A stretch of 64,000 bases of DNA, taken from NCBI GenBank assembly GCA_964466455.1, contig CAYXNL010000003.1:7268-71267 (forward strand), given 5' to 3'. This document shows positions 15,156-60,525 of the stretch, piece after piece. The notes under the pieces are model-generated. The model was not told where the DNA came from. It worked only from the letters and a program-made list of their open reading frames with translations, and ran no database searches. Source of the stretch: an uncultured Thiotrichaceae bacterium. Its GTDB lineage: Bacteria > Pseudomonadota > Gammaproteobacteria > SZUA-229. Made by a program: the position numbers and the translations under genes. Every line of letters begins with the position of its first letter. The stretch's first letter is position 1.

Positions 15156-17408
15156 TTAATGTGATTTACCATACGGCGGCACATCCTGCGTTAGATCAGC
15201 CATGGTTAAAGTATCATTATTAGTACGTTGCTGATAAATTAGCGTGTAGGTCAATACAGAGATAACATAGTCGCGTGTTTCCTCGTAGGGAATAGTTTCT
15301 ATCCAGATATCCGCTGGAACCATCTCATTGCGAGGCAACCACCGTTTTACCCGCTCCGGCCCGGCATTATAAGCAGCCAGAGCGATGGCATAATGTCCAT
15401 TATATCTGTTCAGCAATTTCTGATAATAATAGGCACCATATTTTAGATTTTTCACCGGGTCGAACAGGCTCCGGTTACCCCGCCAGCGTTCATTAAAATG
15501 CCTTGCAATCTGGCGAGCCGTACGTGGCATGATCTGCATCAGACCCCGTGCCCCAGTTGGAGAATAGGCATTTTCATTAAACGCACTTTCACGGCGTATC
15601 AGGCCGAAAAGGATTGCCGGGTTTAGTTTCTGCCGCAAAGCATTCCTGTAGACACTTGCAGAATAAGCCAGTGGAAAACGCATAACAACATCATCCCATA
15701 GTTTTACTTTCGCAATGGTAAAAATAGCAATCTCATCCCATTGCCACTGTTGCGCCAGCTTTGCCGCCACAATAATTTCCTGCTTATCAAGTGAACGCAG
15801 CGCATACCACCATTGTAACTTTGCTTCATTAATTTTATTCAGTACGATAAATTCAGATACAGCACGAAATGATTTACGCTGTTTCAGTGCGTTGATTTCA
15901 TCGGCAGTTACCTGTAACGGGCTATCCGATAACTGGTAGATGCGGTTAACTCTGTCTGCGGCAAGATAACCATAATAACTGCGTCGGGTGGATAACCGCG
16001 AAAAAATTTTCTCCGCTTCTTTGGCTTTGCCGGTTTGCAGATAGGCACGTGCCAGCCAGTATTGCCATTTCTCCTGCTGACGATCAACCTTATCCAGCGC
16101 AGTAATGGCATCAATAACACCTGTCCAGTTCTGTTCAATCAGAGCAGCACGAATACGCCATGTGCGGCTGCTGTCATCACGCAGATCTAACTGACTGAAA
16201 CGTGAATAGGCTCCTGGCTCCCGGCTGAATACCAGTGCAAGAGCCAGACATTTTTCCATTTTCTCTGTCTGCGCTTTATCCATAGTAAAGTGTTTTTTGT
16301 CTGCATCCCACAATGAAATGGCCGTATTAACATCTTTAGCCGCCATCCGACTAATTGCATGAAAAAACATAAGTCGTGTCTGCGCATTAACAGGCAGAGC
16401 TAAAAGCTGCTGGAAAGAACGCCGCGGGTGTTTATGTAGTTTTAACCATAAAGAGGCAATGGCCTGATTTTCTGCCGGCATCAGTTTTTTAACATAGAGA
16501 GCCAGAGAAACTTTATTATTACGCAGCGCCGCATTAAAACGTTGCCAGCGAAGATCCTGCGTAAAAAGAGCTGAATGTTTCAGTTGTGTGAAAAGAGGGT
16601 TACATTCTTCAGGCTGCGAATACCCCACCGACCAGAGTTTCTGTGCAGCTTTTAGTGCGAGTTGTTTTTCTCCTAGATAAAACTGTGCACGGTGAAAATA
16701 ACAGACCAGCGTTTTATCGTGATTATCATTATAGTATTGCAGAAAAGTTTTCCAACGCCTGTGTTTTGCCAGATGATATAGCCAACGATATTTCAGCAAC
16801 GGCGCATAACGTGATGCCTTGTTCTGCGCCAGAAAATCCTTTATCTTCTGCGTATCACCCATATGTTTCTTTAACCATTGGTATTGCAGATAAGGATATA
16901 GCGGGTAGCCCTGTAACTGATCGGCCAGTAGAAAATAGTGTCGGTCATCACCCTTTTTTATATAATCTTCTGCGCGCAGAAATAACTGACGCAAATGGGC
17001 AATTTCTTTGCCACTAACCGATTGTTCAATATGGGGCTGTCCGATAGGCGGTTGTTCATTATGCAGGTATTCACTATGCGGGGGCTCACTATACCTGTGA
17101 GAATTTGAGTATACTGAATCATCTATCGTCTGATTTCGTCGGGTATGTATAATTCTTTTCTGCTGCCCGATAGCGCTAATTTTATCCGGCAATAGATCGG
17201 TATTTATTTTTGCCAGCATCTGAGAGGAACCACTACCGGGTAATTCAGCTCGAAATGTTGGTACATTCACCGGGTCACTATCACCAGCCTGAGTTTTTTT
17301 CTCCTGACTTAAAACATCGGCGGAAAAAAACAGGCTGACTGTACACATTAACAGCAGCAAAGTGTGATGGTAAGTATTCATCCTCTGTGACCCATTCAGG
17401 TCTGGCAA
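15156..17408 (-). CDS. slt: soluble lytic murein transglycosylase (Slt70 family)
   Basis: 750 aa; signal peptide, long superhelical N-terminal domain and C-terminal lysozyme-like domain with catalytic motif ESAFNENAYSPTGARGLMQIMPRTA. Confidence 0.85.
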   Translation of the reverse strand: MPDLNGSQRMNTYHHTLLLLMCTVSLFFSADVLSQEKKTQAGDSDPVNVPTFRAELPGSGSSQMLAKINTDLLPDKISAIGQQKRIIHTRRNQTIDDSVYSNSHRYSEPPHSEYLHNEQPPIGQPHIEQSVSGKEIAHLRQLFLRAEDYIKKGDDRHYFLLADQLQGYPLYPYLQYQWLKKHMGDTQKIKDFLAQNKASRYAPLLKYRWLYHLAKHRRWKTFLQYYNDNHDKTLVCYFHRAQFYLGEKQLALKAAQKLWSVGYSQPEECNPLFTQLKHSALFTQDLRWQRFNAALRNNKVSLALYVKKLMPAENQAIASLWLKLHKHPRRSFQQLLALPVNAQTRLMFFHAISRMAAKDVNTAISLWDADKKHFTMDKAQTEKMEKCLALALVFSREPGAYSRFSQLDLRDDSSRTWRIRAALIEQNWTGVIDAITALDKVDRQQEKWQYWLARAYLQTGKAKEAEKIFSRLSTRRSYYGYLAADRVNRIYQLSDSPLQVTADEINALKQRKSFRAVSEFIVLNKINEAKLQWWYALRSLDKQEIIVAAKLAQQWQWDEIAIFTIAKVKLWDDVVMRFPLAYSASVYRNALRQKLNPAILFGLIRRESAFNENAYSPTGARGLMQIMPRTARQIARHFNERWRGNRSLFDPVKNLKYGAYYYQKLLNRYNGHYAIALAAYNAGPERVKRWLPRNEMVPADIWIETIPYEETRDYVISVLTYTLIYQQRTNNDTLTMADLTQDVPPYGKSH

Positions 17409-24799: not shown

Positions 24800-25378
24800 T
24801 CAGGTTTTAGGCAGAGTAACGCCCCGCTGCCCCTGATATTTACCTCCACGATCTGCATAAGAGGTATCACAAACTTCATCCGATTCAAAAAATAACATCT
24901 GTGCCACGCCCTCATTGGCGTAAATTTTTGCCGGTAGCGGGGTGGTATTGGAAAACTCCAGTGTTACATGCCCTTCCCATTCCGGCTCTAATGGCGTTAC
25001 ATTCACAATAATGCCACAACGCGCATAGGTAGACTTACCCAGACAGACAGTTAATACGCTACGTGGAATACAAAAATATTCAACCGTGCGGGCAAGTGCA
25101 AACGAATTCGGCGGGATAATACAGACGTCCCCTTTAAAATCAACAAAACTGTGTTCGGAAAAATTCTTGGGATCTACTATCGCTGAATTAATATTGGTGA
25201 ATATTTTAAACTCATCAGCGCAGCGTACGTCATAGCCATAACTGGATGTGCCATAGGAAATAATGCGTTCATTATTTTCATTAATCCGCATCTGCCCGGC
25301 TTCAAATGGAGAAATCATGCCTGTTGCGGCCGCTCGGCGAATCCATTTGTCAGATTTAATACTCAAAATATACTCCAC
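24800..25378 (-). CDS. dcd: dCTP deaminase
   Basis: 192 aa; highly similar to E. coli Dcd ([11 protein letters not shown]..., GYDVRC motif). Confidence 0.9.
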
Positions 25379-25389
25379 AGGGAAAGAAT

Positions 25390-25448
25390 AGATACTAACA
25401 GGATGGATGAAAAAGATAAGTATCCTTTTTATCCGTTTCAGTAATAAT
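25390..25448. repeat. short (internally deleted) copy of the same repetitive element, directly upstream of the dcd start
   Basis: agatactaacaggatggatgaaaaagataagtatcctttttatccgtttcagtaataat; the first 21 nt are identical to the long copy and the right end is about 85% identical. Confidence 0.65.
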
Positions 25449-25627
25449 TGCGGGAATTGTACCAGACTAGCAGGCTACTGGCTAAAACTACCCGTACTGA
25501 CCAATCACCGTACAGCCCGTTGTAAATATATACGCCTTGCGAACACTCGCGGTACAATCAAACACATATTAAAAGACTGACCTTTACCCTGAAACTACAG
25601 CTTTTTTCTTACGGAGCATCTGCAATA

Positions 25628-48156: not shown

Positions 48157-50721
48157 CTAATGATATTTTTTTCTAACGGCTGCGTCGATACTGTCATTCA
48201 GGCCCTGTGTATAGCGTAAGCTTTTAAGCAGGTCTTTTATATTCTGTTGTGTATTAATGTTCAGCTTCACCCGCTGGTTCTTACCCAGCTCGGGGCTGAC
48301 TCCTGCCAGATGGAGTGCCGCACTCATCCTGCCATCCGGAGTATAGGACAAATTAGCCGCCAGTTTACTGTAACGAAAATCCCGCAATGCCTTTAACACA
48401 ATAGTTGACAGCGGGCTGGTTGAAATTTGTCCTTTGCCAGTTTTCGGCTGATAGCGAATATACCCTTTTCTGCCTGCATTATCAAAATAACCCTGATGAA
48501 TATAAATACCCTGTTGATTTAATTCAATGGGTAATACGCCATCGAGTTTACCATCAACAGATAACCCCGGTAATGGCTGTGATCGGGCAATGCTAGCTAA
48601 ATTAATATTACGTATTTTCAGGGTAAACCGGTTTACCGGATGATTAAAATCCAGCGTTATCTTTCTGCTATAAAAACGTCCATCAAAAATATGACCTTCC
48701 AGGTTATGAAGAGTAATAACCGGCAGGTAATATTTTTTTTCATGATTCAACACAAGTTGCAGATGAATATTACTGATTAATACACCGCTATCAAGGTGTT
48801 TCAGCCGGATTAAACCGGTATGACCAATACGTTTTTCTGGCATAGATTTCACCGTTTGCAATACCGGCAGTATATTAAAATTCTGCACCGTATTTAACCC
48901 TGAGAACACGATTTGCTGATAAAAACCACCCACATTTTTCATCTGTAACCGGGTTGACAGCTGAAAAGGTTTATTTGCCCACCATTGCATAGAGGCATGA
49001 AGAGCAACCCTGCCGCTTATGATATCCACAAGATAAGGCCACGGTTTAACAAGCCGGCTCAGTCTGTCTGAATCAGCAGACAGCTTAATTTCCCTGTCTG
49101 TATCAATTGTCAGCATACCATGATTATGCTGAATATTGTGACTGCCGTTAAAGCTAAACTTTGCCGGTAACTCGGCAGAAAATAAATGGCCATTAAATTT
49201 TATTTTTTCATTAGCCTTAGTAATATGCAATATAACATCCCTGCCTTTTAGCTGAATTAACCTGCCATTAGTAAAACGCTGAAGAGCCAGAATCGATCTA
49301 CTTGCAATATTTATAGCAAAGGCAGTATCACTACCATAGGCTGCGTTTTTTTCATTAGCCGGATTAATATCAATATTCCCATACAGCTTAATTACCGCAT
49401 TCTTTATTTGTGTATCGTCAATATCCAGCTTTTTATAGCGAATAAAACTGCCACGATGCAGGACAATTTGCGAGCCATTTTTTAAGGCGTTAATATTAAA
49501 AATAAAACTCGCCTCAGGATGCTCAACACCACCACCCTGCCATCGAATCTGATTACCTGTTAATGTAACCAGCGCAAGCTCTTTACGAGCAGATTGTTTT
49601 TCCCTGATAATATTTTTATCTGCATTATTTATGCGCTGATTTTTAGGTGGCATACCATCCTGTAGCAACATAGCAACAGGAAGAGTTATTTTTCCACTGA
49701 TCGGATCAATAATAAATGCCGCCACCTGTTTTTTTGTTACCCGTTCTTTTGTTACCCGTTCTTTTGTTATCTGCTCTTTTGTTACCTGTTCTTTTCTACC
49801 AGCAGATAGCCTGCTGTTTTTTATATCCATAAAATCCAGTTTTTGTAACAGTTTTATTATTTTCTGTATATTAAGCTGATATTCAGCCCTGATTACTTTG
49901 TCACTCAGGATAATATGTAATAATGCCGTACGCGATTGATCCAGATTGATACTGATGGTATTCGCTGAAGAAATTTTTACTGTTAATTCCTCTGGCAGGT
50001 CAGGTATATTTAATCTTAGTGATAGCTCTGTATTTTCTTTTGCGGTTTCTATTTTATGGAAATCGAGGCTAATACGCCGGTTATTGAACCCCTTAAAAGG
50101 GTTTCCATGTAGTTGTAATGTATCAATATAAAGCTGCTTAAAGGGTATTTTTTCTCGCCAGTTAGTCTGAAACTGCCTGAATAGCTGCCGCAATACTACA
50201 GATTGTGAAACTAACGGGCGTTTTTTCGCTGCAATTTTATTAGTAGACGGTTTTATATTGGCGGGAACATTCTGCCTACTTTTATCAGCAGGGACTGATG
50301 CATTACTGGCTACGGCCATCCCCGATGTTAAACTGGAGAATGTCTTTTTTGGCGTGGTAAGTTTTGTTATCTGCAAGTCTCTGATCATTATTTTATCTAT
50401 AACCACTTTACCCTGAGCAGCAATAAACAGATCCTGATTACTGTATTGCAGCTTTATCCCTTTTACCCGCACTTGATAAACTGCCGAAGATGCTGTCTGA
50501 TCAACCGGATTCAGATTAAAGATTAGTGAAGAAATTTGTGTTTGATGTCCACCAATTTTATCTATTTTTAATTGCTGCAGACGAATACCTGCCTGATATA
50601 ATTTTTCTTCTGCCAGTAACGGTAATAATGATTGAACAATAGCCGCACGATATGCCAGGCCAGTAATAATAGCCAGTATTAATATAATCAGAAAAATAAA
50701 TATCCACTTTAATACTTTCAT
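48157..50721 (-). CDS. ydbH: AsmA-like intermembrane phospholipid transport protein YdbH
   Basis: 854 aa; N-terminal anchor MKVLKWIFIFLIILILAIITGLAY, beta-rich body; conserved ydbH-ynbE-ydbL gene order. Contains in-frame VTKEQ/VTKER pentapeptide repeats. Confidence 0.8.
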   Translation of the reverse strand: MKVLKWIFIFLIILILAIITGLAYRAAIVQSLLPLLAEEKLYQAGIRLQQLKIDKIGGHQTQISSLIFNLNPVDQTASSAVYQVRVKGIKLQYSNQDLFIAAQGKVVIDKIMIRDLQITKLTTPKKTFSSLTSGMAVASNASVPADKSRQNVPANIKPSTNKIAAKKRPLVSQSVVLRQLFRQFQTNWREKIPFKQLYIDTLQLHGNPFKGFNNRRISLDFHKIETAKENTELSLRLNIPDLPEELTVKISSANTISINLDQSRTALLHIILSDKVIRAEYQLNIQKIIKLLQKLDFMDIKNSRLSAGRKEQVTKEQITKERVTKERVTKKQVAAFIIDPISGKITLPVAMLLQDGMPPKNQRINNADKNIIREKQSARKELALVTLTGNQIRWQGGGVEHPEASFIFNINALKNGSQIVLHRGSFIRYKKLDIDDTQIKNAVIKLYGNIDINPANEKNAAYGSDTAFAINIASRSILALQRFTNGRLIQLKGRDVILHITKANEKIKFNGHLFSAELPAKFSFNGSHNIQHNHGMLTIDTDREIKLSADSDRLSRLVKPWPYLVDIISGRVALHASMQWWANKPFQLSTRLQMKNVGGFYQQIVFSGLNTVQNFNILPVLQTVKSMPEKRIGHTGLIRLKHLDSGVLISNIHLQLVLNHEKKYYLPVITLHNLEGHIFDGRFYSRKITLDFNHPVNRFTLKIRNINLASIARSQPLPGLSVDGKLDGVLPIELNQQGIYIHQGYFDNAGRKGYIRYQPKTGKGQISTSPLSTIVLKALRDFRYSKLAANLSYTPDGRMSAALHLAGVSPELGKNQRVKLNINTQQNIKDLLKSLRYTQGLNDSIDAAVRKKYH
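49726..49800. repeat. 15-bp in-frame tandem repeat (about 4.5 copies of CCGTTCTTTTGTTAC) inside ydbH
   Basis: gtttttttgttac ccgttcttttgttac ccgttcttttgttat ctgctcttttgttac ctgttcttttctacc; encodes (VTKEQ/VTKER)n on the minus strand. Confidence 0.85.
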
Positions 50722-56051: not shown

Positions 56052-57620
56052 TTGTACGATTTATTACACCAGCGCCTGGCAAAAATCCGCCAGTCGGGTA
56101 AAGAAGAAACCCTGTCCGGTTCAAAAATCGGACTGGAAAAAGAAAGCCTGCGGGTATCCCCTGATGGCGGACTTTCACAACACCCTTCGCCTGCGGCATG
56201 GGGTTCGATGCTAACCAATCCCATGATTACCACCGACTTTTCAGAAGCACTGGCAGAGTTAATCACGCCGCCATGTGATTCAGTTAATGAGGTAATTCAG
56301 TCACTCGATGATATTCAGCATTTTGTCTATCGCCACCTCGATAATGAAATTCTCTGGGCAACCAGTATGCCCTGCGTGGTTGCCGGTGAAACCAGTATTC
56401 CACTGGCTCGTTATGGACGTTCTAACGCCGCACAGATGAAAACAATTTATCGCAAAGGGCTGGGGCTGCGTTACGGTCGCGCCATGCAGGTCATTGCCGG
56501 GGTACATTTTAATTATTCTTATGCTGAAGAATTCTGGTGCTGTTTTCAGCAACTGGAACGAGGCTCGGGTCAACTACAGGATTTTATTTCCGATCACTAC
56601 ATGGGGCTGGTCAGGAATCTGCTGCGTTATGGCTGGTTAGTCCCCTACCTGTTCGGTGCCTCACCCGCTGTATGTAAATCTTTTCTTAACGGACAAAAAA
56701 CACTGTTACAGGAGTTTAATGATAATACCTGTTATGAACCCTACGCCACTTCATTGCGTCTGGGTAATATCGGTTATCAAAATAACAAGGAAGACCTGGC
56801 AGGCATTAAGGCCTGTTATGATTCCGTAGACTGTTATGCGGAAAGTCTGCAATGCGCCATTCGTACCCCGAATCCAGCGTACCAGAAAATCGGCGTAAAG
56901 GTAAACGGTGAATACCGCCAACTGAACACCAATATTCTACAGATAGAGAATGAGTATTACAGTACCGTGCGCCCGAAACCGCTGCTGCACACCAATGAAA
57001 GCCCGGCTTATGCCCTGAAAAAACACGGCATTGCCTATATCGAACTACGTTCCGTTGATGTTAATGCCTATGACCCACATGGCATTCATTCCGAGCAGTT
57101 ATATTTCCTCGAGGTTTTTATGCTGTTTTGCCTGTTGCACGACAGCCCACCACTTAGCAGCAACGAAATCAATACCATTGACCAGAATCTACTGCTGGTT
57201 GCTCATCAGGGTCGCAAACCCGGGCTTACCCTGCAACGCAATAACCACCCCATCAACCTGCAACAGTGGGCAGGTGAGTTATGCCGTGAAATGAAAACCG
57301 TTGCAACATTGCTGGATCAGGCAAATTTCTGCGAAAACTATTTTTCCAGTGTAAAGGCTCAGATTGCCAGCGTTTATGACCCGGATCTAACACCTTCGGC
57401 AAGAATGCTGGCTGAAATGCGTGAACATGAAGAGGGCTTTTATCATTATGCCAAACGTATGTCACAGCATCATTATCTGTATTATAAAAAACAATCCCTC
57501 CCTGCCGAGAAAATTCGTTTTTTTAAACAGTTGGCTGAGCAGTCCATACAACAGCAACAACAGATAGAACAGACCGACCAGATCAGTTTTGATCAGTATC
57601 TTGCCCGGTACTATGCCTAA
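56052..57620 (+). CDS. gshA: glutamate-cysteine ligase (gamma-glutamylcysteine synthetase)
   Basis: Strong alignment with E. coli GshA (LEKESLRV / ITTDFSEALAELITP / MPCVVAGE / YLFGASPAVCKSFL / LRLGNIGYQN / YIELRSVDVN). A TTG at 56052 gives an N-terminus the same length as E. coli GshA (which itself uses TTG) and avoids overlap with DUF1015. The alternative ATG at 56004 overlaps DUF1015 by 29 nt; the ORF-track frame begins at 55986. Confidence 0.85.
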   Translation: MYDLLHQRLAKIRQSGKEETLSGSKIGLEKESLRVSPDGGLSQHPSPAAWGSMLTNPMITTDFSEALAELITPPCDSVNEVIQSLDDIQHFVYRHLDNEILWATSMPCVVAGETSIPLARYGRSNAAQMKTIYRKGLGLRYGRAMQVIAGVHFNYSYAEEFWCCFQQLERGSGQLQDFISDHYMGLVRNLLRYGWLVPYLFGASPAVCKSFLNGQKTLLQEFNDNTCYEPYATSLRLGNIGYQNNKEDLAGIKACYDSVDCYAESLQCAIRTPNPAYQKIGVKVNGEYRQLNTNILQIENEYYSTVRPKPLLHTNESPAYALKKHGIAYIELRSVDVNAYDPHGIHSEQLYFLEVFMLFCLLHDSPPLSSNEINTIDQNLLLVAHQGRKPGLTLQRNNHPINLQQWAGELCREMKTVATLLDQANFCENYFSSVKAQIASVYDPDLTPSARMLAEMREHEEGFYHYAKRMSQHHYLYYKKQSLPAEKIRFFKQLAEQSIQQQQQIEQTDQISFDQYLARYYA

Positions 57621-57636
57621 CAGTAACCATAACCCA

Positions 57637-58041
57637 ATGCGCCAGATATTTTATGACTGCTGGCAATTAAAACACAGCGGGCAGCCACTGGACGCTATGC
57701 AATCCATCATTGCCACCATTATTGAACTTCATCCCGAATACCACGCTTTACTGGAAGATCCATCTTCTCTGGAAAAAGACTTTTCTGTTGAAAATGGGGA
57801 AAGTAATCCATTTCTACATTTAAGCATGCATATTGCTCTGCACGAACAGCTTAGCGGCAACCGACCTGCTGGAATAAAAAATATATATCAGCAACTGTGT
57901 TATCAGCACGGTAGCGCACATGATGCAGAACACGCCATGATGGAATGTCTGGGAGAAAGCCTCTGGCAGGCACAACACAATGGCTGTACACCGGATGAAA
58001 CAGCCTATCTACACTGCCTTAAAAAGTTGGAAAAGCGCTGA
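57637..58041 (+). CDS. DUF1841 family protein
   Basis: MRQIFYDCWQLKHSGQPLD...EYHALLEDP...ENGESNPFLHLSMHIALHEQLSGNRPAGI...AEHAMMECLGESLW matches the DUF1841 consensus. Upstream in-frame ATGs at 57613 and 57589 (ORF-track start) are alternatives. Confidence 0.7.
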   Translation: MRQIFYDCWQLKHSGQPLDAMQSIIATIIELHPEYHALLEDPSSLEKDFSVENGESNPFLHLSMHIALHEQLSGNRPAGIKNIYQQLCYQHGSAHDAEHAMMECLGESLWQAQHNGCTPDETAYLHCLKKLEKR

Positions 58042-58050
58042 CTAATGTAG

Positions 58051-58188
58051 AGATACTAACAGGATGGATGAGAGGGATACTTATTGTTCAAGACCGTCAG
58101 CCGCAGGGATGCGGGTGTCGAGCTTACATGGAGGTACTTACAGCGTGTCCTGAACAATAAGTATCCCTTTTACCCGTTTCAATAATAT
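58051..58188. repeat. MITE/REP-like palindromic element, long copy (21-bp terminal inverted repeats GGGATACTTATTGTTCAAGAC / GTCCTGAACAATAAGTATCCC)
   Basis: Left part agatactaacaggatggatga and right part cttttacccgtttcaataatat are shared with the short copy at 25390-25448. Internal nested hairpin CCGCAgggaTGCGG. Confidence 0.7.
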
Positions 58189-58343
58189 ACATTTACTGCA
58201 AAAAATATTATTTTTTTATTCCAATTGACTGAACTTGCTATTTTCCTGCTTGTCTTTTTTTGTCGGAACCGTGTAGACTGAAATTATTCAGGTTTCATTC
58301 CCCCATCCTGGCGGATGATATTAATTTTTCTGGAGAAAAACGA

Positions 58344-58685
58344 ATGGTAAATAAAACGACGAAAAGAACCCTTTCTGTGGCAATAGGAGCCGCCTTTGCT
58401 GTAGCAATGATGACCGCACCAATAGCAAAAGCAGATACCAATCCATTTGGAATGCAAAACCTGAAAACCAGTTATCGGGAAATTGCAAGTAACAAATGTG
58501 CTGCCAGTATGAAGAAGCAGACCAGTGGCAAGTGTGGTGCTGCAGAGTTGAAGAAAAAAGAAGAAATGAAGAAAATGGAGATGATGAAAAAGGAAGGTAA
58601 ATGCGGTACCAATAAAATGAAAAAAATGGAAAAAGAAGGTAAATGTGGCGCCAATAAAATGAAAAAAATGGAACATGAAGGTTAA
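58344..58685 (+). CDS. secreted Met/Cys/Lys-rich repeat protein with tandem EGKCG...MKKME modules; putative periplasmic Cu/soft-metal-binding protein or RiPP-metallophore-like precursor
   Basis: GGAG at 58332-58335 then ATG at 58344. Sec signal peptide MVNKTTKRTLSVAIGAAFAVAMMTAPIAKA|DT. Mature region contains four KCG/EGKCG units interleaved with MKKME(M)MKK Met-rich motifs. The last two modules are a 42-bp tandem DNA repeat (58596-58679). Strong terminator follows. Confidence 0.7.
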   Translation: MVNKTTKRTLSVAIGAAFAVAMMTAPIAKADTNPFGMQNLKTSYREIASNKCAASMKKQTSGKCGAAELKKKEEMKKMEMMKKEGKCGTNKMKKMEKEGKCGANKMKKMEHEG

Positions 58686-58931: not shown

Positions 58932-60428
58932 ATGTTTTCAGCAGAATCATTCGGAATAGAAGTACTCGCATGGATGGCAACAATATTTTTCATCACCATC
59001 AGCCTGCTACTTATTTTTCTTGTTGGTGTTTACATTGCGGATGTTACTCAGACCAAACAGGCCATCCGCCGGAACTATCCAGTTATTGGTCATTTTCGTT
59101 ATTATTTCGAACACCTCGGTACTTTTTTCCGTCAGTATTTTTTTACCATGGATCGGGAGGAAATGCCCTTTAATCGCGCCCAGCGCTCATGGGTATATCG
59201 TGCAGCAAAAAATATCGAGAATACCGTTGGTTTCGGTTCTACACGTGACCTACGCCCGGTCGGTACCATTTTATTTATTAATACCGCCTTTCCAACACTT
59301 GGCAGGGAGGCGGTTGACGCCAAACCGGTTATTATTGGTGGGGATTCTGCCCGACAACCCTTTACAGCCTGTTCTTTTTTTAATATTTCCGGGATGAGCT
59401 ATGGCGCCATTTCCAAACCTGCAATACAGGCTTTATCCTATGGTGCAAAAAAAGCCAATGCCTGGATGAATACCGGTGAAGGCGGTCTGTCTTCCTACCA
59501 TCTTGAAGGTGGTGCTGATATTGTGTTTCAGATTGGAACAGCCAAATATGGTGTCAGAGACGAAAACGGCAAATTATCTGATGAAAAACTAACTAAAATT
59601 GCTGCACACGAAAATGTCCGCATGTTTGAAATAAAGATGTCTCAGGGTGCAAAACCCGGTAAAGGCGGCATTCTACCGGGAAAAAAAGTAACCGCAGAAA
59701 TAGCTCGTATCCGCGGTATACCTGCTGGTGAAGATTCTATCAGCCCCAATCGCCACCCTGAAATCAGAACAAATGATGACCTTATTGATATGATTAATCA
59801 TATACGGGAAGTTACCGGCAAACCCGTTGGTTTCAAGGCCGTACTGGGAGATGACATCTGGTTAAAAGAATTTTTCCAGGCGGTTAACAAACGCGGAAAA
59901 CATAGCGCTCCTGATTTTATTACCATCGACAGTGCCGATGGCGGTACGGGCGCTGCACCGGTGAGTCTGATGGATTATGTTGGTCTGCCGATTCAGGAAA
60001 GCCTGCCTATCGCGATTGACAATATTGTACAGGCGGGTCTGCGTGAACGCATCAAGGTAATTGCCTCAGGCAAATTAATTAACCCGGCCGAAGTCGCCTG
60101 GGCATTATGCGTAGGGGCTGACTTTATTAGTTCAGCACGTGGCTTTATGATGTCTCTGGGATGCATTCAGGCTTTGCAGTGTCATCAGAATACCTGCCCA
60201 ACCGGTATTACCACTCATGATAAAAAATTACAACACGGCCTGGTTGCTGAGCAGAAATCTTCACGTGTATGTAACTATATTAATAATATCCGTTATGAAG
60301 TGGGTCTTATCGCCCATTCCTGTGGTGTCTCTAATGCCAGGAAACTGAGCCGATGTCATGCCCGCATTGTCCAGCAAAATGGAAAGTCAATAACACTGAA
60401 AGACCTGTACCCCGGTAAACAGGAATAA
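58932..60428 (+). CDS. FMN-binding glutamate synthase family protein (GltB domain-2-like), membrane-anchored
   Basis: 498 aa; N-terminal TM helix (IEVLAWMATIFFITISLLLIFLVGVYIA) then glutamate-synthase central domain motifs (ISGMSYGAIS, GEGG, QGAKPGKGG, IDSADGGTGAAP, ASGKLINP) and a C-terminal Cys cluster. Confidence 0.8.
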   Translation: MFSAESFGIEVLAWMATIFFITISLLLIFLVGVYIADVTQTKQAIRRNYPVIGHFRYYFEHLGTFFRQYFFTMDREEMPFNRAQRSWVYRAAKNIENTVGFGSTRDLRPVGTILFINTAFPTLGREAVDAKPVIIGGDSARQPFTACSFFNISGMSYGAISKPAIQALSYGAKKANAWMNTGEGGLSSYHLEGGADIVFQIGTAKYGVRDENGKLSDEKLTKIAAHENVRMFEIKMSQGAKPGKGGILPGKKVTAEIARIRGIPAGEDSISPNRHPEIRTNDDLIDMINHIREVTGKPVGFKAVLGDDIWLKEFFQAVNKRGKHSAPDFITIDSADGGTGAAPVSLMDYVGLPIQESLPIAIDNIVQAGLRERIKVIASGKLINPAEVAWALCVGADFISSARGFMMSLGCIQALQCHQNTCPTGITTHDKKLQHGLVAEQKSSRVCNYINNIRYEVGLIAHSCGVSNARKLSRCHARIVQQNGKSITLKDLYPGKQE

Positions 60429-60525
60429 TAATTAACCGCACCGCTCATGGTATGATACTACCAGATGGTAGAATCCCATCGTACATCGCAAAACCAGAAC
60501 TTATTTCTATGTTAACAGTATAGTA

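Follow-up and report, generated by a model that had tools for sequence, protein, structure and literature searches.

The palindromic sequence at positions 58051-58188 of the 64,000 nucleotides analysed here, hereafter called the window, raised the question of whether it is a member of a dispersed family of mobile repeats, a structured RNA or regulatory module of its host, or a local duplication belonging to no family. The initial annotation had described it as an unannotated, lineage-specific element resembling MITEs or REPs and present in a long and a short form, and this description was borne out by dispersed copies, by empty orthologous sites in related species and by a short copy with a full-length orthologue. 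With a probability of about 80%, the repeat represents a new family of miniature, non-coding and non-autonomous TA-flanked elements (bacterial MITE) in a Thiotrichaceae-like gammaproteobacterium and its close relatives. The family is previously undescribed and is of an ordinary, well-known kind of mobile element, without any new class or principle.

Extent of the unit and its copies in the window

The palindrome was as claimed. Its two 21-nt arms, GGGATACTTATTGTTCAAGAC (58074-58094) and GTCCTGAACAATAAGTATCCC (58147-58167), were complementary with one mismatch, and shuffled sequences gave no such matches; in the repeat finder the arms reached 29 nt at 86% complementarity (Table 1). The nested GC hairpin was also confirmed. 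RNA folding of the long copy gave -58.6 and -53.9 kcal/mol for the two strands (z = -5.5 and -5.6 against shuffles), so that both strands were far more stable than the shuffled sequences; the short copy folded only modestly better than its shuffles.

The outer flanks of the long copy were found again at 25390-25446, the left one identical in 21 of 21 positions and the right one 90% identical over 31 nt, in agreement with the short form reported near position 25390. The 20-mer GATACTAACAGGATGGATGA occurred twice in the window (0.00 occurrences expected). A third, degenerate trace proposed further downstream was a chance resemblance, having no match to the family profile at E <= 190 and more than three mismatches from the 20-mer.

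From the family alignment and its consensus, the complete unit spans (A/T)TACTAACAG to GTTTCAGTAAT. It is canonically about 134 nt long and has conserved, imperfectly inverted termini, 5'-(A/T)TACTAACAGGATGGATGA ... CNGTTTCAGTAAT-3' (in brief, TACTAACAGG...CAGTA). As terminal inverted repeats, ATACTAACAG and ATTACTGAAACAG (the right end as reverse complement) agree at 10 of 13 positions with small indels and are followed by the identical GATGAAAAGG; the outermost 10 nt of both ends agree only when small indels are allowed. Since the unit runs to what had been called its flanks (ATACTAACAG... and ...GTTTCAGTAAT), these are the true termini, and the 21-nt repeats, which had been taken for the termini, are an inner part of the stem. 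The whole unit thus forms one long imperfect hairpin with end-to-end pairing, topped by a small apical hairpin.

The long copy does lie just past the stop codon of the DUF1841 gene (58039-58041), at a distance of 11-14 nt and not of the 10 bp first given. The 12 bp assigned to the interval between the short copy and the dcd start come close to the 13 nt that separate it from a GTG at 25378, but the TTG start at 25366, which fits the 188-aa product called in public assemblies, is 25 nt away.

Table 1 Features of the repeat copies and adjoining genes in the window
Feature	Position	Strand	Description
Full-length family copy	58053..58186	+	134 nt, ATACTAACAGG...GTTTCAATAAT; profile match over model positions 1-134, 148 bits
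Unit missing from relatives, long copy	58056-58187		132 nt; site empty in L048 and L050
Left flanking TA, long copy	58054..58055		Putative target-site duplication; ATA also possible; L048 empty site reads GTAGAGATA/TATC
Right flanking TA, long copy	58186..58187		Putative target-site duplication
Left arm of long stem	58066..58094	+	Includes the hypervariable, compensated mid-stem; repeat finder and covariation
Apical region, conserved	58095..58146	+	Contains the small hairpin CCGCA-GGGA-TGCGG at 58101-58114
Right arm of long stem	58147..58175	+	Repeat finder and covariation
Short family copy	25392..25445	+	54 nt; both termini kept; about 80 nt (inner stem and apical region) gone
Unit missing from relative, short copy	~25395-25446		Site empty in L054
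Proposed third trace	60455..60480		Not a family member
dcd	24800..25366	-	dCTP deaminase, 188 aa, TTG start with GGAG Shine-Dalgarno; PF22769; adjoins short copy
DUF1841 gene	57613..58041	+	142 aa; PF08897; upstream neighbour of long copy
Promoter-like site toward dcd	25456..25484	-	TAGCCA-17-TACAAT with TG; consensus match only; outside the element

Dispersed copies, insertion sites and derivatives

The proteins of the window were present, identical, in the NCBI metagenome assemblies VAOW, VAOX, VAPF, VAPG and VAOZ and in Logan assemblies of SRR6439355 and related runs. The nearest named genome was a MAG, 'uncultured Thiotrichaceae bacterium', with about 72-74% DNA identity in orthologous genes. 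When the 20-mer was searched for in 185,579 species, each represented by one genome, the single match was a solo 23-nt left end in this same MAG (CAYTUK01). This solo terminus (L007:7404-7426, identical with L017:1429) is the same as in the window copy, including four flanking bases, lies 34 nt upstream of a gene and is the sole trace of the family in that GTDB representative. It prompted the idea that the left end is a common promoter or operator motif, which was rejected because the ends face genes and gene tails equally.

The single match among the species representatives, together with the presence of only two copies in the 64-kb window, would fit a local duplication or a chance palindrome without any family. 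This explanation is excluded by the copies found at unrelated loci and by the shuffles, which gave no chance matches. The exact left-end 19-mer ATACTAACAGGATGGATGA occurred in 36 metagenome stretches, nearly all from one assembly series, corresponding to 27 distinct sites after removal of duplicates between samples; two of these (L037 and L044) are probably chance matches, since they show only 19-21 nt of the terminus, leaving about 25 distinct sites. A profile built from 12 full copies detected 46 distinct copies in about 470 kb, which settles the copy-count check proposed in the initial annotation against a local duplication. About 24 of the 46 were near full length (128-136 nt, canonically 134), without coding capacity, and the remainder were short or truncated. 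Two sequence subfamilies could be distinguished by their left ends, ..CAGGATGGATGA and ..CAGTACAGATGA.

Five copies lay within the window and the 6.4 kb past its end. The latter stretch (L008, adjoining the right end of the window) contributed three of them, one full, one short (45 nt) and one fragment at a gene end. In this fragment, about 3.2 kb past the window (L008:11559-11590), the end of a ROK-family gene, with its final codons and stop, is made up of the right end of a truncated copy; the remnant is longer at the same place in L050, and there is none in L048. At another locus (L031) a copy was found in nearly every intergenic spacer across a 7-kb run of housekeeping genes. Copies were either intergenic or overlapped gene ends only; three of 43 lay inside heuristically called ORFs, and these ORFs are apparently spurious. 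They occurred in both orientations, and according to heuristic gene calls the neighbouring genes were arranged divergently in 13 cases, convergently in eight, in sense in seven and in antisense in six. Orientation was mixed even inside stretches of 7-12 kb (+,+,-,+,- in the window with L008; -,+,-,-,+ in L031).

Nothing similar to the family was detected in plasmid, E. coli and phage collections. In viral contigs the apical region was absent, with only two chance 18-mer matches. The window had no Rfam match at the gathering thresholds, the best weak match over the element scoring 15.6 bits where the cut-off is 70. No sites polymorphic for filled and empty states were found among the metagenome loci themselves. 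Assemblers break contigs at repeats, and four independent Logan short-read contigs (L003-L006) started exactly at the apex of the short copy (position 1 = window 25420). The contigs end there because the repeat breaks assemblies; the repeat thus accounts for breaks in short-read assemblies of this organism at these points.

Syntenic loci from two related species were obtained by searches with the DUF1841 protein (88% and 84% identical; L048 is the 88% relative) and with a 219-aa protein beside dcd (84%), which served in place of the dcd protein because the latter was too conserved for ranking relatives. At four orthologous sites the window species carries the element and relatives with 84-88% protein identity lack it. 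At site 1, that of the long window copy, the empty junction in L048 reads GTAGAGATA/TATCTTTC.., where the slash marks the point of insertion, compared with GTAGAGATA(CTAAC...CAATAATA)TACATTT.. in the window, with the element in brackets. Site 2 (L008:9034) was empty in both relatives. Site 3 carries the 45-nt short copy in L008 (L008:10873) and a full copy at the same position in L048 (L048:17765-17896, 132 bits), and is empty in L050; it provided the cleanest junction, CCGGTAAATA/AAGCCGG in L050 compared with CTGGTAAATA(CTAAC...CAGTAATA)AATCTGG in L048. Site 4, that of the short window copy, was empty in L054. Insertions that differ between relatives at 84-88% protein identity are usable as markers for comparing strains or species.

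The insertion gain at site 3 was 132 nt, with 134 nt from TA to TA. A TA preceded CTAACAG at 33 of 37 left ends and followed CAGTAA at 27 of 31 right ends, and a TA was present at the junction of all four empty sites (ATA in three, CTA in one). The flanking TA dinucleotides are a putative target-site duplication. Published bacterial MITEs have 5'-TA-3' termini that duplicate the target, so that the difference between filled and empty sites is the length minus 2 (PMC2229807). The junctions of the present family match that signature; since the right end of the element reads ..AATA, they also fit insertion after (W)TA without duplication. The left flank had A at -5 in 28 of 37 copies and C at -4 in 18 of 37, and the right flank was merely A/T, giving a one-sided preference for A-N-A-T-A on the left that is lacking on the right. 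Such asymmetry is unusual for a symmetric DDE transposase.

Two further differences were seen in L048. A palindromic insertion of about 150 nt, unrelated to the present family, lies in the DUF6580/GltS spacer (about 15911-16110); neither the window species nor L050 has it, and it probably represents a second MITE-like family. Additionally, a 76-aa remnant (L048:11107-11337) is what is left there of the 498-aa glutamate-synthase-family gene at 58932-60428 of the window.

Short forms of 41, 45, 54 and 57 nt kept both termini and lacked varying amounts of the hairpin tip. The 45-nt copy at L008:10873 corresponds to the full copy at the same site in L048, which identifies the short forms as deletion derivatives, as had been proposed for the short window copy; they arise through deletion of the hairpin tip. 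An unstable palindrome is expected to undergo deletion. In four of the 24 full copies (L008:9034, L041:1720, L031:7013 and L016:6231) the 52-nt apical segment was the exact reverse complement of that in the others, and the order of the asymmetric termini was unchanged. As the flipped loops resemble different unflipped sub-lineages, flipping probably occurred repeatedly; the simplest cause would be recombination or template switching between the arms. A nested arrangement, with an inner MITE of about 80 bp inserted in either direction in an outer palindrome of about 55 bp, was considered and rejected, because the inner part is always accompanied by the outer ends, a short copy is orthologous to a full copy and the inverted segment is the 52-nt loop only; a single unit that undergoes loop inversion and tip deletion was preferred.

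Hairpin conservation, mobilisation and neighbouring genes

In an alignment of 17 copies, 41 consensus pairs were recognised, with 95.5% of cells paired. Double changes were found at 10 pairs, compared with 5.5 +/- 1.4 in shuffles (0 of 500) and at most 4 in controls with slid partners; compensatory changes keep the stem paired. Pairwise identity was 88% in the termini, 83-90% in the inner stem and 88% in the apical region, and 61-67% in the mid-stem (about 14 bp), which was still paired. The mid-stem variant CCTGGTG/CACCAGG, for example, was found in L022 and L036, and in L035 with mismatches in the right arm. Identical variants at unrelated loci indicate that the changes arose in propagating lineages, which implies that pairing itself and the apical sequence would count in propagation. 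Recognition of the terminal repeats alone is insufficient to account for a conserved apex together with a variable mid-stem.

No conserved reading frame was present across the 17 full copies. A mini-ORF (ATG GAT GAA...CAG TAA), in frame in two short copies, was rejected because neither its frames nor its stops are conserved in them; the three differences between the window copies fall on its third codon positions.

G-U pairs occupied 55 cells at 15 sites, compared with nine cells at six sites for A-C mismatches, and the strand running from ATAC to TAAT folded better as RNA in 18 of 20 copies. The G-U excess and the better folding of one strand hint at a strand-specific single-stranded form, both counts being inflated by shared descent.

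The preferred reading is that of a bacterial MITE. A transposase acting in trans would recognise the conserved termini and move the element, and, by analogy with the proposals for RUP and Correia elements, the enzyme would most likely be a TA-duplicating DDE transposase of the IS630/Tc1-mariner type (PMC2229807). After insertion, palindrome-driven deletion would let the copies decay, the loop would invert by recombination or template switching between the arms, and neighbouring transcripts would carry the copies passively. No transposase and no longer element with the family termini was found in 586 kb of related loci, nor were IS-sized repeats found among these loci. The truncated copies were also considered as ends of a full IS, an idea that was rejected since their neighbours are housekeeping genes, with no transposase and no IS-sized repeats. 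Against an enzyme of the IS630 type stand the lack of a partner IS in the 586 kb, the asymmetric flank, the conserved apex and the G-U excess.

Several of these features would suit the main rival, an improbable explanation, a hairpin element moved as a single strand by an HUH/Y1 enzyme (like REPIN/RAYT or the PATEs of IS200/IS605) and inserting 3' of A-N-A-T-A without duplication. It would be consistent with a mid-stem selected for pairing and not for sequence, with the predominance of G-U (G-T) over A-C in the better folding strand, with the one-sided flank and its A at -5, with the conserved small hairpin within the element, and with junctions that can be read as CTAAC...CAGTAATA inserted after ..ATA. 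Elements of the IS200/IS605 type are strongly strand-biased. Within stretches of 7-12 kb, where the direction of replication must be the same throughout, copies of the present family point both ways; this argues against the replication-strand bias typical of those elements. Moreover, the termini are mutually inverted and TA-flanked, as in MITEs of the DDE type, the GTAG-type head of REPs is absent, and no Y1 transposase was present in the 586 kb, a sample far smaller than the whole genome.

A broader reading, that the element depends on its hairpin (folded single strand, apical module working in either orientation and one-sided A-N-A-T-A target) or that its apical domain has been taken over by the host as an RNA or DNA signal, is unlikely; it is retained because of the compensated mid-stem as opposed to the conserved loop, the G-U asymmetry, the flipped loops and the asymmetric flank. 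If hairpin dependence were true, the family would represent a new kind of miniature mobile element, mediated by ssDNA or RNA.

To the right of the short copy lies the promoter-like site toward dcd, both hexamers of which are invariant in L054, the relative without the element. If this site is real, the short copy would constitute the first 52 nt or so of the dcd leader, at the start of its likely 5' UTR. If transcription reads through, the long copy would give the DUF1841 3' UTR a hairpin of about -56 kcal/mol. For these two genes of the window, the predicted consequence is a strong hairpin in the 3' UTR of DUF1841 and one at the beginning of the dcd leader, and it is possible that either copy alters RNA stability or expression. 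The suggestion that the long copy acts as a terminator was not supported: the scan of both window copies revealed no terminator-like site inside them and no U/T tract after the hairpin, and copies stand in either orientation to neighbouring genes. The single terminator-like site in the scanned regions was at 58304-58317, downstream of the long copy, whose right end reads ..GTTTCAGTAAT.

That the primary nature of the family is a structured RNA or cis-regulatory module of the host (small-RNA gene, mRNA stabiliser or terminator family) is very improbable. A hairpin held by compensatory changes, the conserved apical region, the G-U asymmetry in favour of one strand, the position of copies beside gene ends and an extended -10-like TGTTAGTAT in the left end read outward would all be in keeping with such a function. 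However, copies have all four orientations to their neighbours with no sense bias (seven compared with six), and these arrangements, together with the mixed orientation, argue against a strand-specific RNA role. The relatives lack the element at orthologous sites where the flanking regulatory DNA is conserved, the internal deletions and truncations are varied, no pair of promoter and terminator and no U-tract is present, and there is no Rfam family. A dedicated host function is not indicated.

Other sequences near or beside these genes deserve mention. Downstream of the long copy, positions 58344-58685 encode a protein of 113 aa with a signal peptide, a high content of Lys, Met and Cys and a 42-nt tandem repeat (KKMEKEGKCG units); it has a weak likeness to HvfA-type RiPP metallophore precursors (NF050188, E = 8e-6, short of the cut-off). 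The approximately 146 nt before this gene (58199-58343) show next to no change in relatives with a protein identity of only 84-88%, which suggests a conserved leader or promoter; no Rfam match was found for this region. Elsewhere in the window, an 854-aa ORF on the minus strand, the orthologue of which in L048 is called YdbH-like, contains 4.8 tandem copies of a 15-nt repeat (ACCTGTTCTTTTGTT) at 49724-49795.

Comparison with known repeat families

The family is a well-resolved case of a MITE from an uncultured lineage resembling sulfur bacteria, with an unusually clear natural history, documented by filled and empty sites, a full copy decaying to a short one, inversion of the loop and compensatory evolution of the stem. 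MITEs in general are shorter than 200 bp and have terminal inverted repeats, TA termini, long stem-loops and long and short forms (PMC2229807). The present elements are likewise small and non-coding, with terminal inverted repeats, many intergenic copies and presence or absence at orthologous sites. In its working the family, judged by analogy, most resembles the Correia, RUP and ERIC elements.

Correia elements (CREE/NEMIS) of Neisseria are also non-coding, intergenic and present in many copies of about 100-155 bp, with a difference between filled and empty sites of the length minus 2; their long terminal inverted repeats form one long hairpin with TA at both ends, and an internal block of about 50 bp distinguishes their long from their short forms (PMC2229807). 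They are co-transcribed with neighbouring genes (PMC2229807; PMC2649163). The Correia elements belong to another host lineage, and the likeness is one of description only. They have one defined short variant, whereas the tip deletions found here are heterogeneous (41-57 nt), and the apical loop occurs here in both orientations. The IHF site, promoter activity and RNase III processing of Correia elements are not part of the likeness.

RUP of Streptococcus pneumoniae, of about 107 bp, is similarly intergenic, non-coding, inserted at TA and thought to be moved in trans (PMC2229807). It differs in having a partner IS (IS630-Spn1) with matching terminal repeats, of a kind not found here in the 586 kb, and the stem of the present element is much longer. 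ERIC (IRU) of enterobacteria, an imperfect palindrome of about 127 bp, also comes in shorter and longer variants, is transcribed with its neighbours and affects mRNA stability according to its orientation (PMC2229807). Its terminal repeats are short, unlike those described here, and blastn against 5,426 genomes of E. coli, which carries ERIC, gave no match, so that the family is not a sequence member of ERIC.

REPINs are dispersed hairpin repeats whose two arms change in concert, so that pairing is kept, and in this respect the REPIN and REP-RAYT systems resemble the present family. REPs themselves are 20-40 nt long, usually GC-rich, and have a GTAG-type head and a single-copy RAYT. None of these features was seen here: the family consensus is AT-rich at its ends and without a GTAG head, and no RAYT was seen near repeat clusters, the genes of L031 being housekeeping genes. 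Integron attC sites (RYYYAAC ... GTTRRRY) were considered and rejected, as TACTAAC and GTTTCAG misfit the cores and the flanking genes are syntenic housekeeping genes between which only the repeat is gained or lost.

The loop found in both orientations with unchanged arms (four of 24 copies) is like the small inversions in hairpins known as 'flip/flop' isomers. These are found mainly in non-coding DNA of organelles and in the terminal hairpins of parvoviruses, and they are not known to occur regularly in bacterial MITEs.

Among related sulfur bacteria, the giant Candidatus Thiomargarita nelsonii has abundant palindromic MITEs for which no parental IS was identified (PMC4853749). With their 10-bp direct and 19-bp inverted repeats, or TATAG ends, they are set apart by description from the family of the window, with which they share TA-rich termini and large hairpins (PMC4853749).
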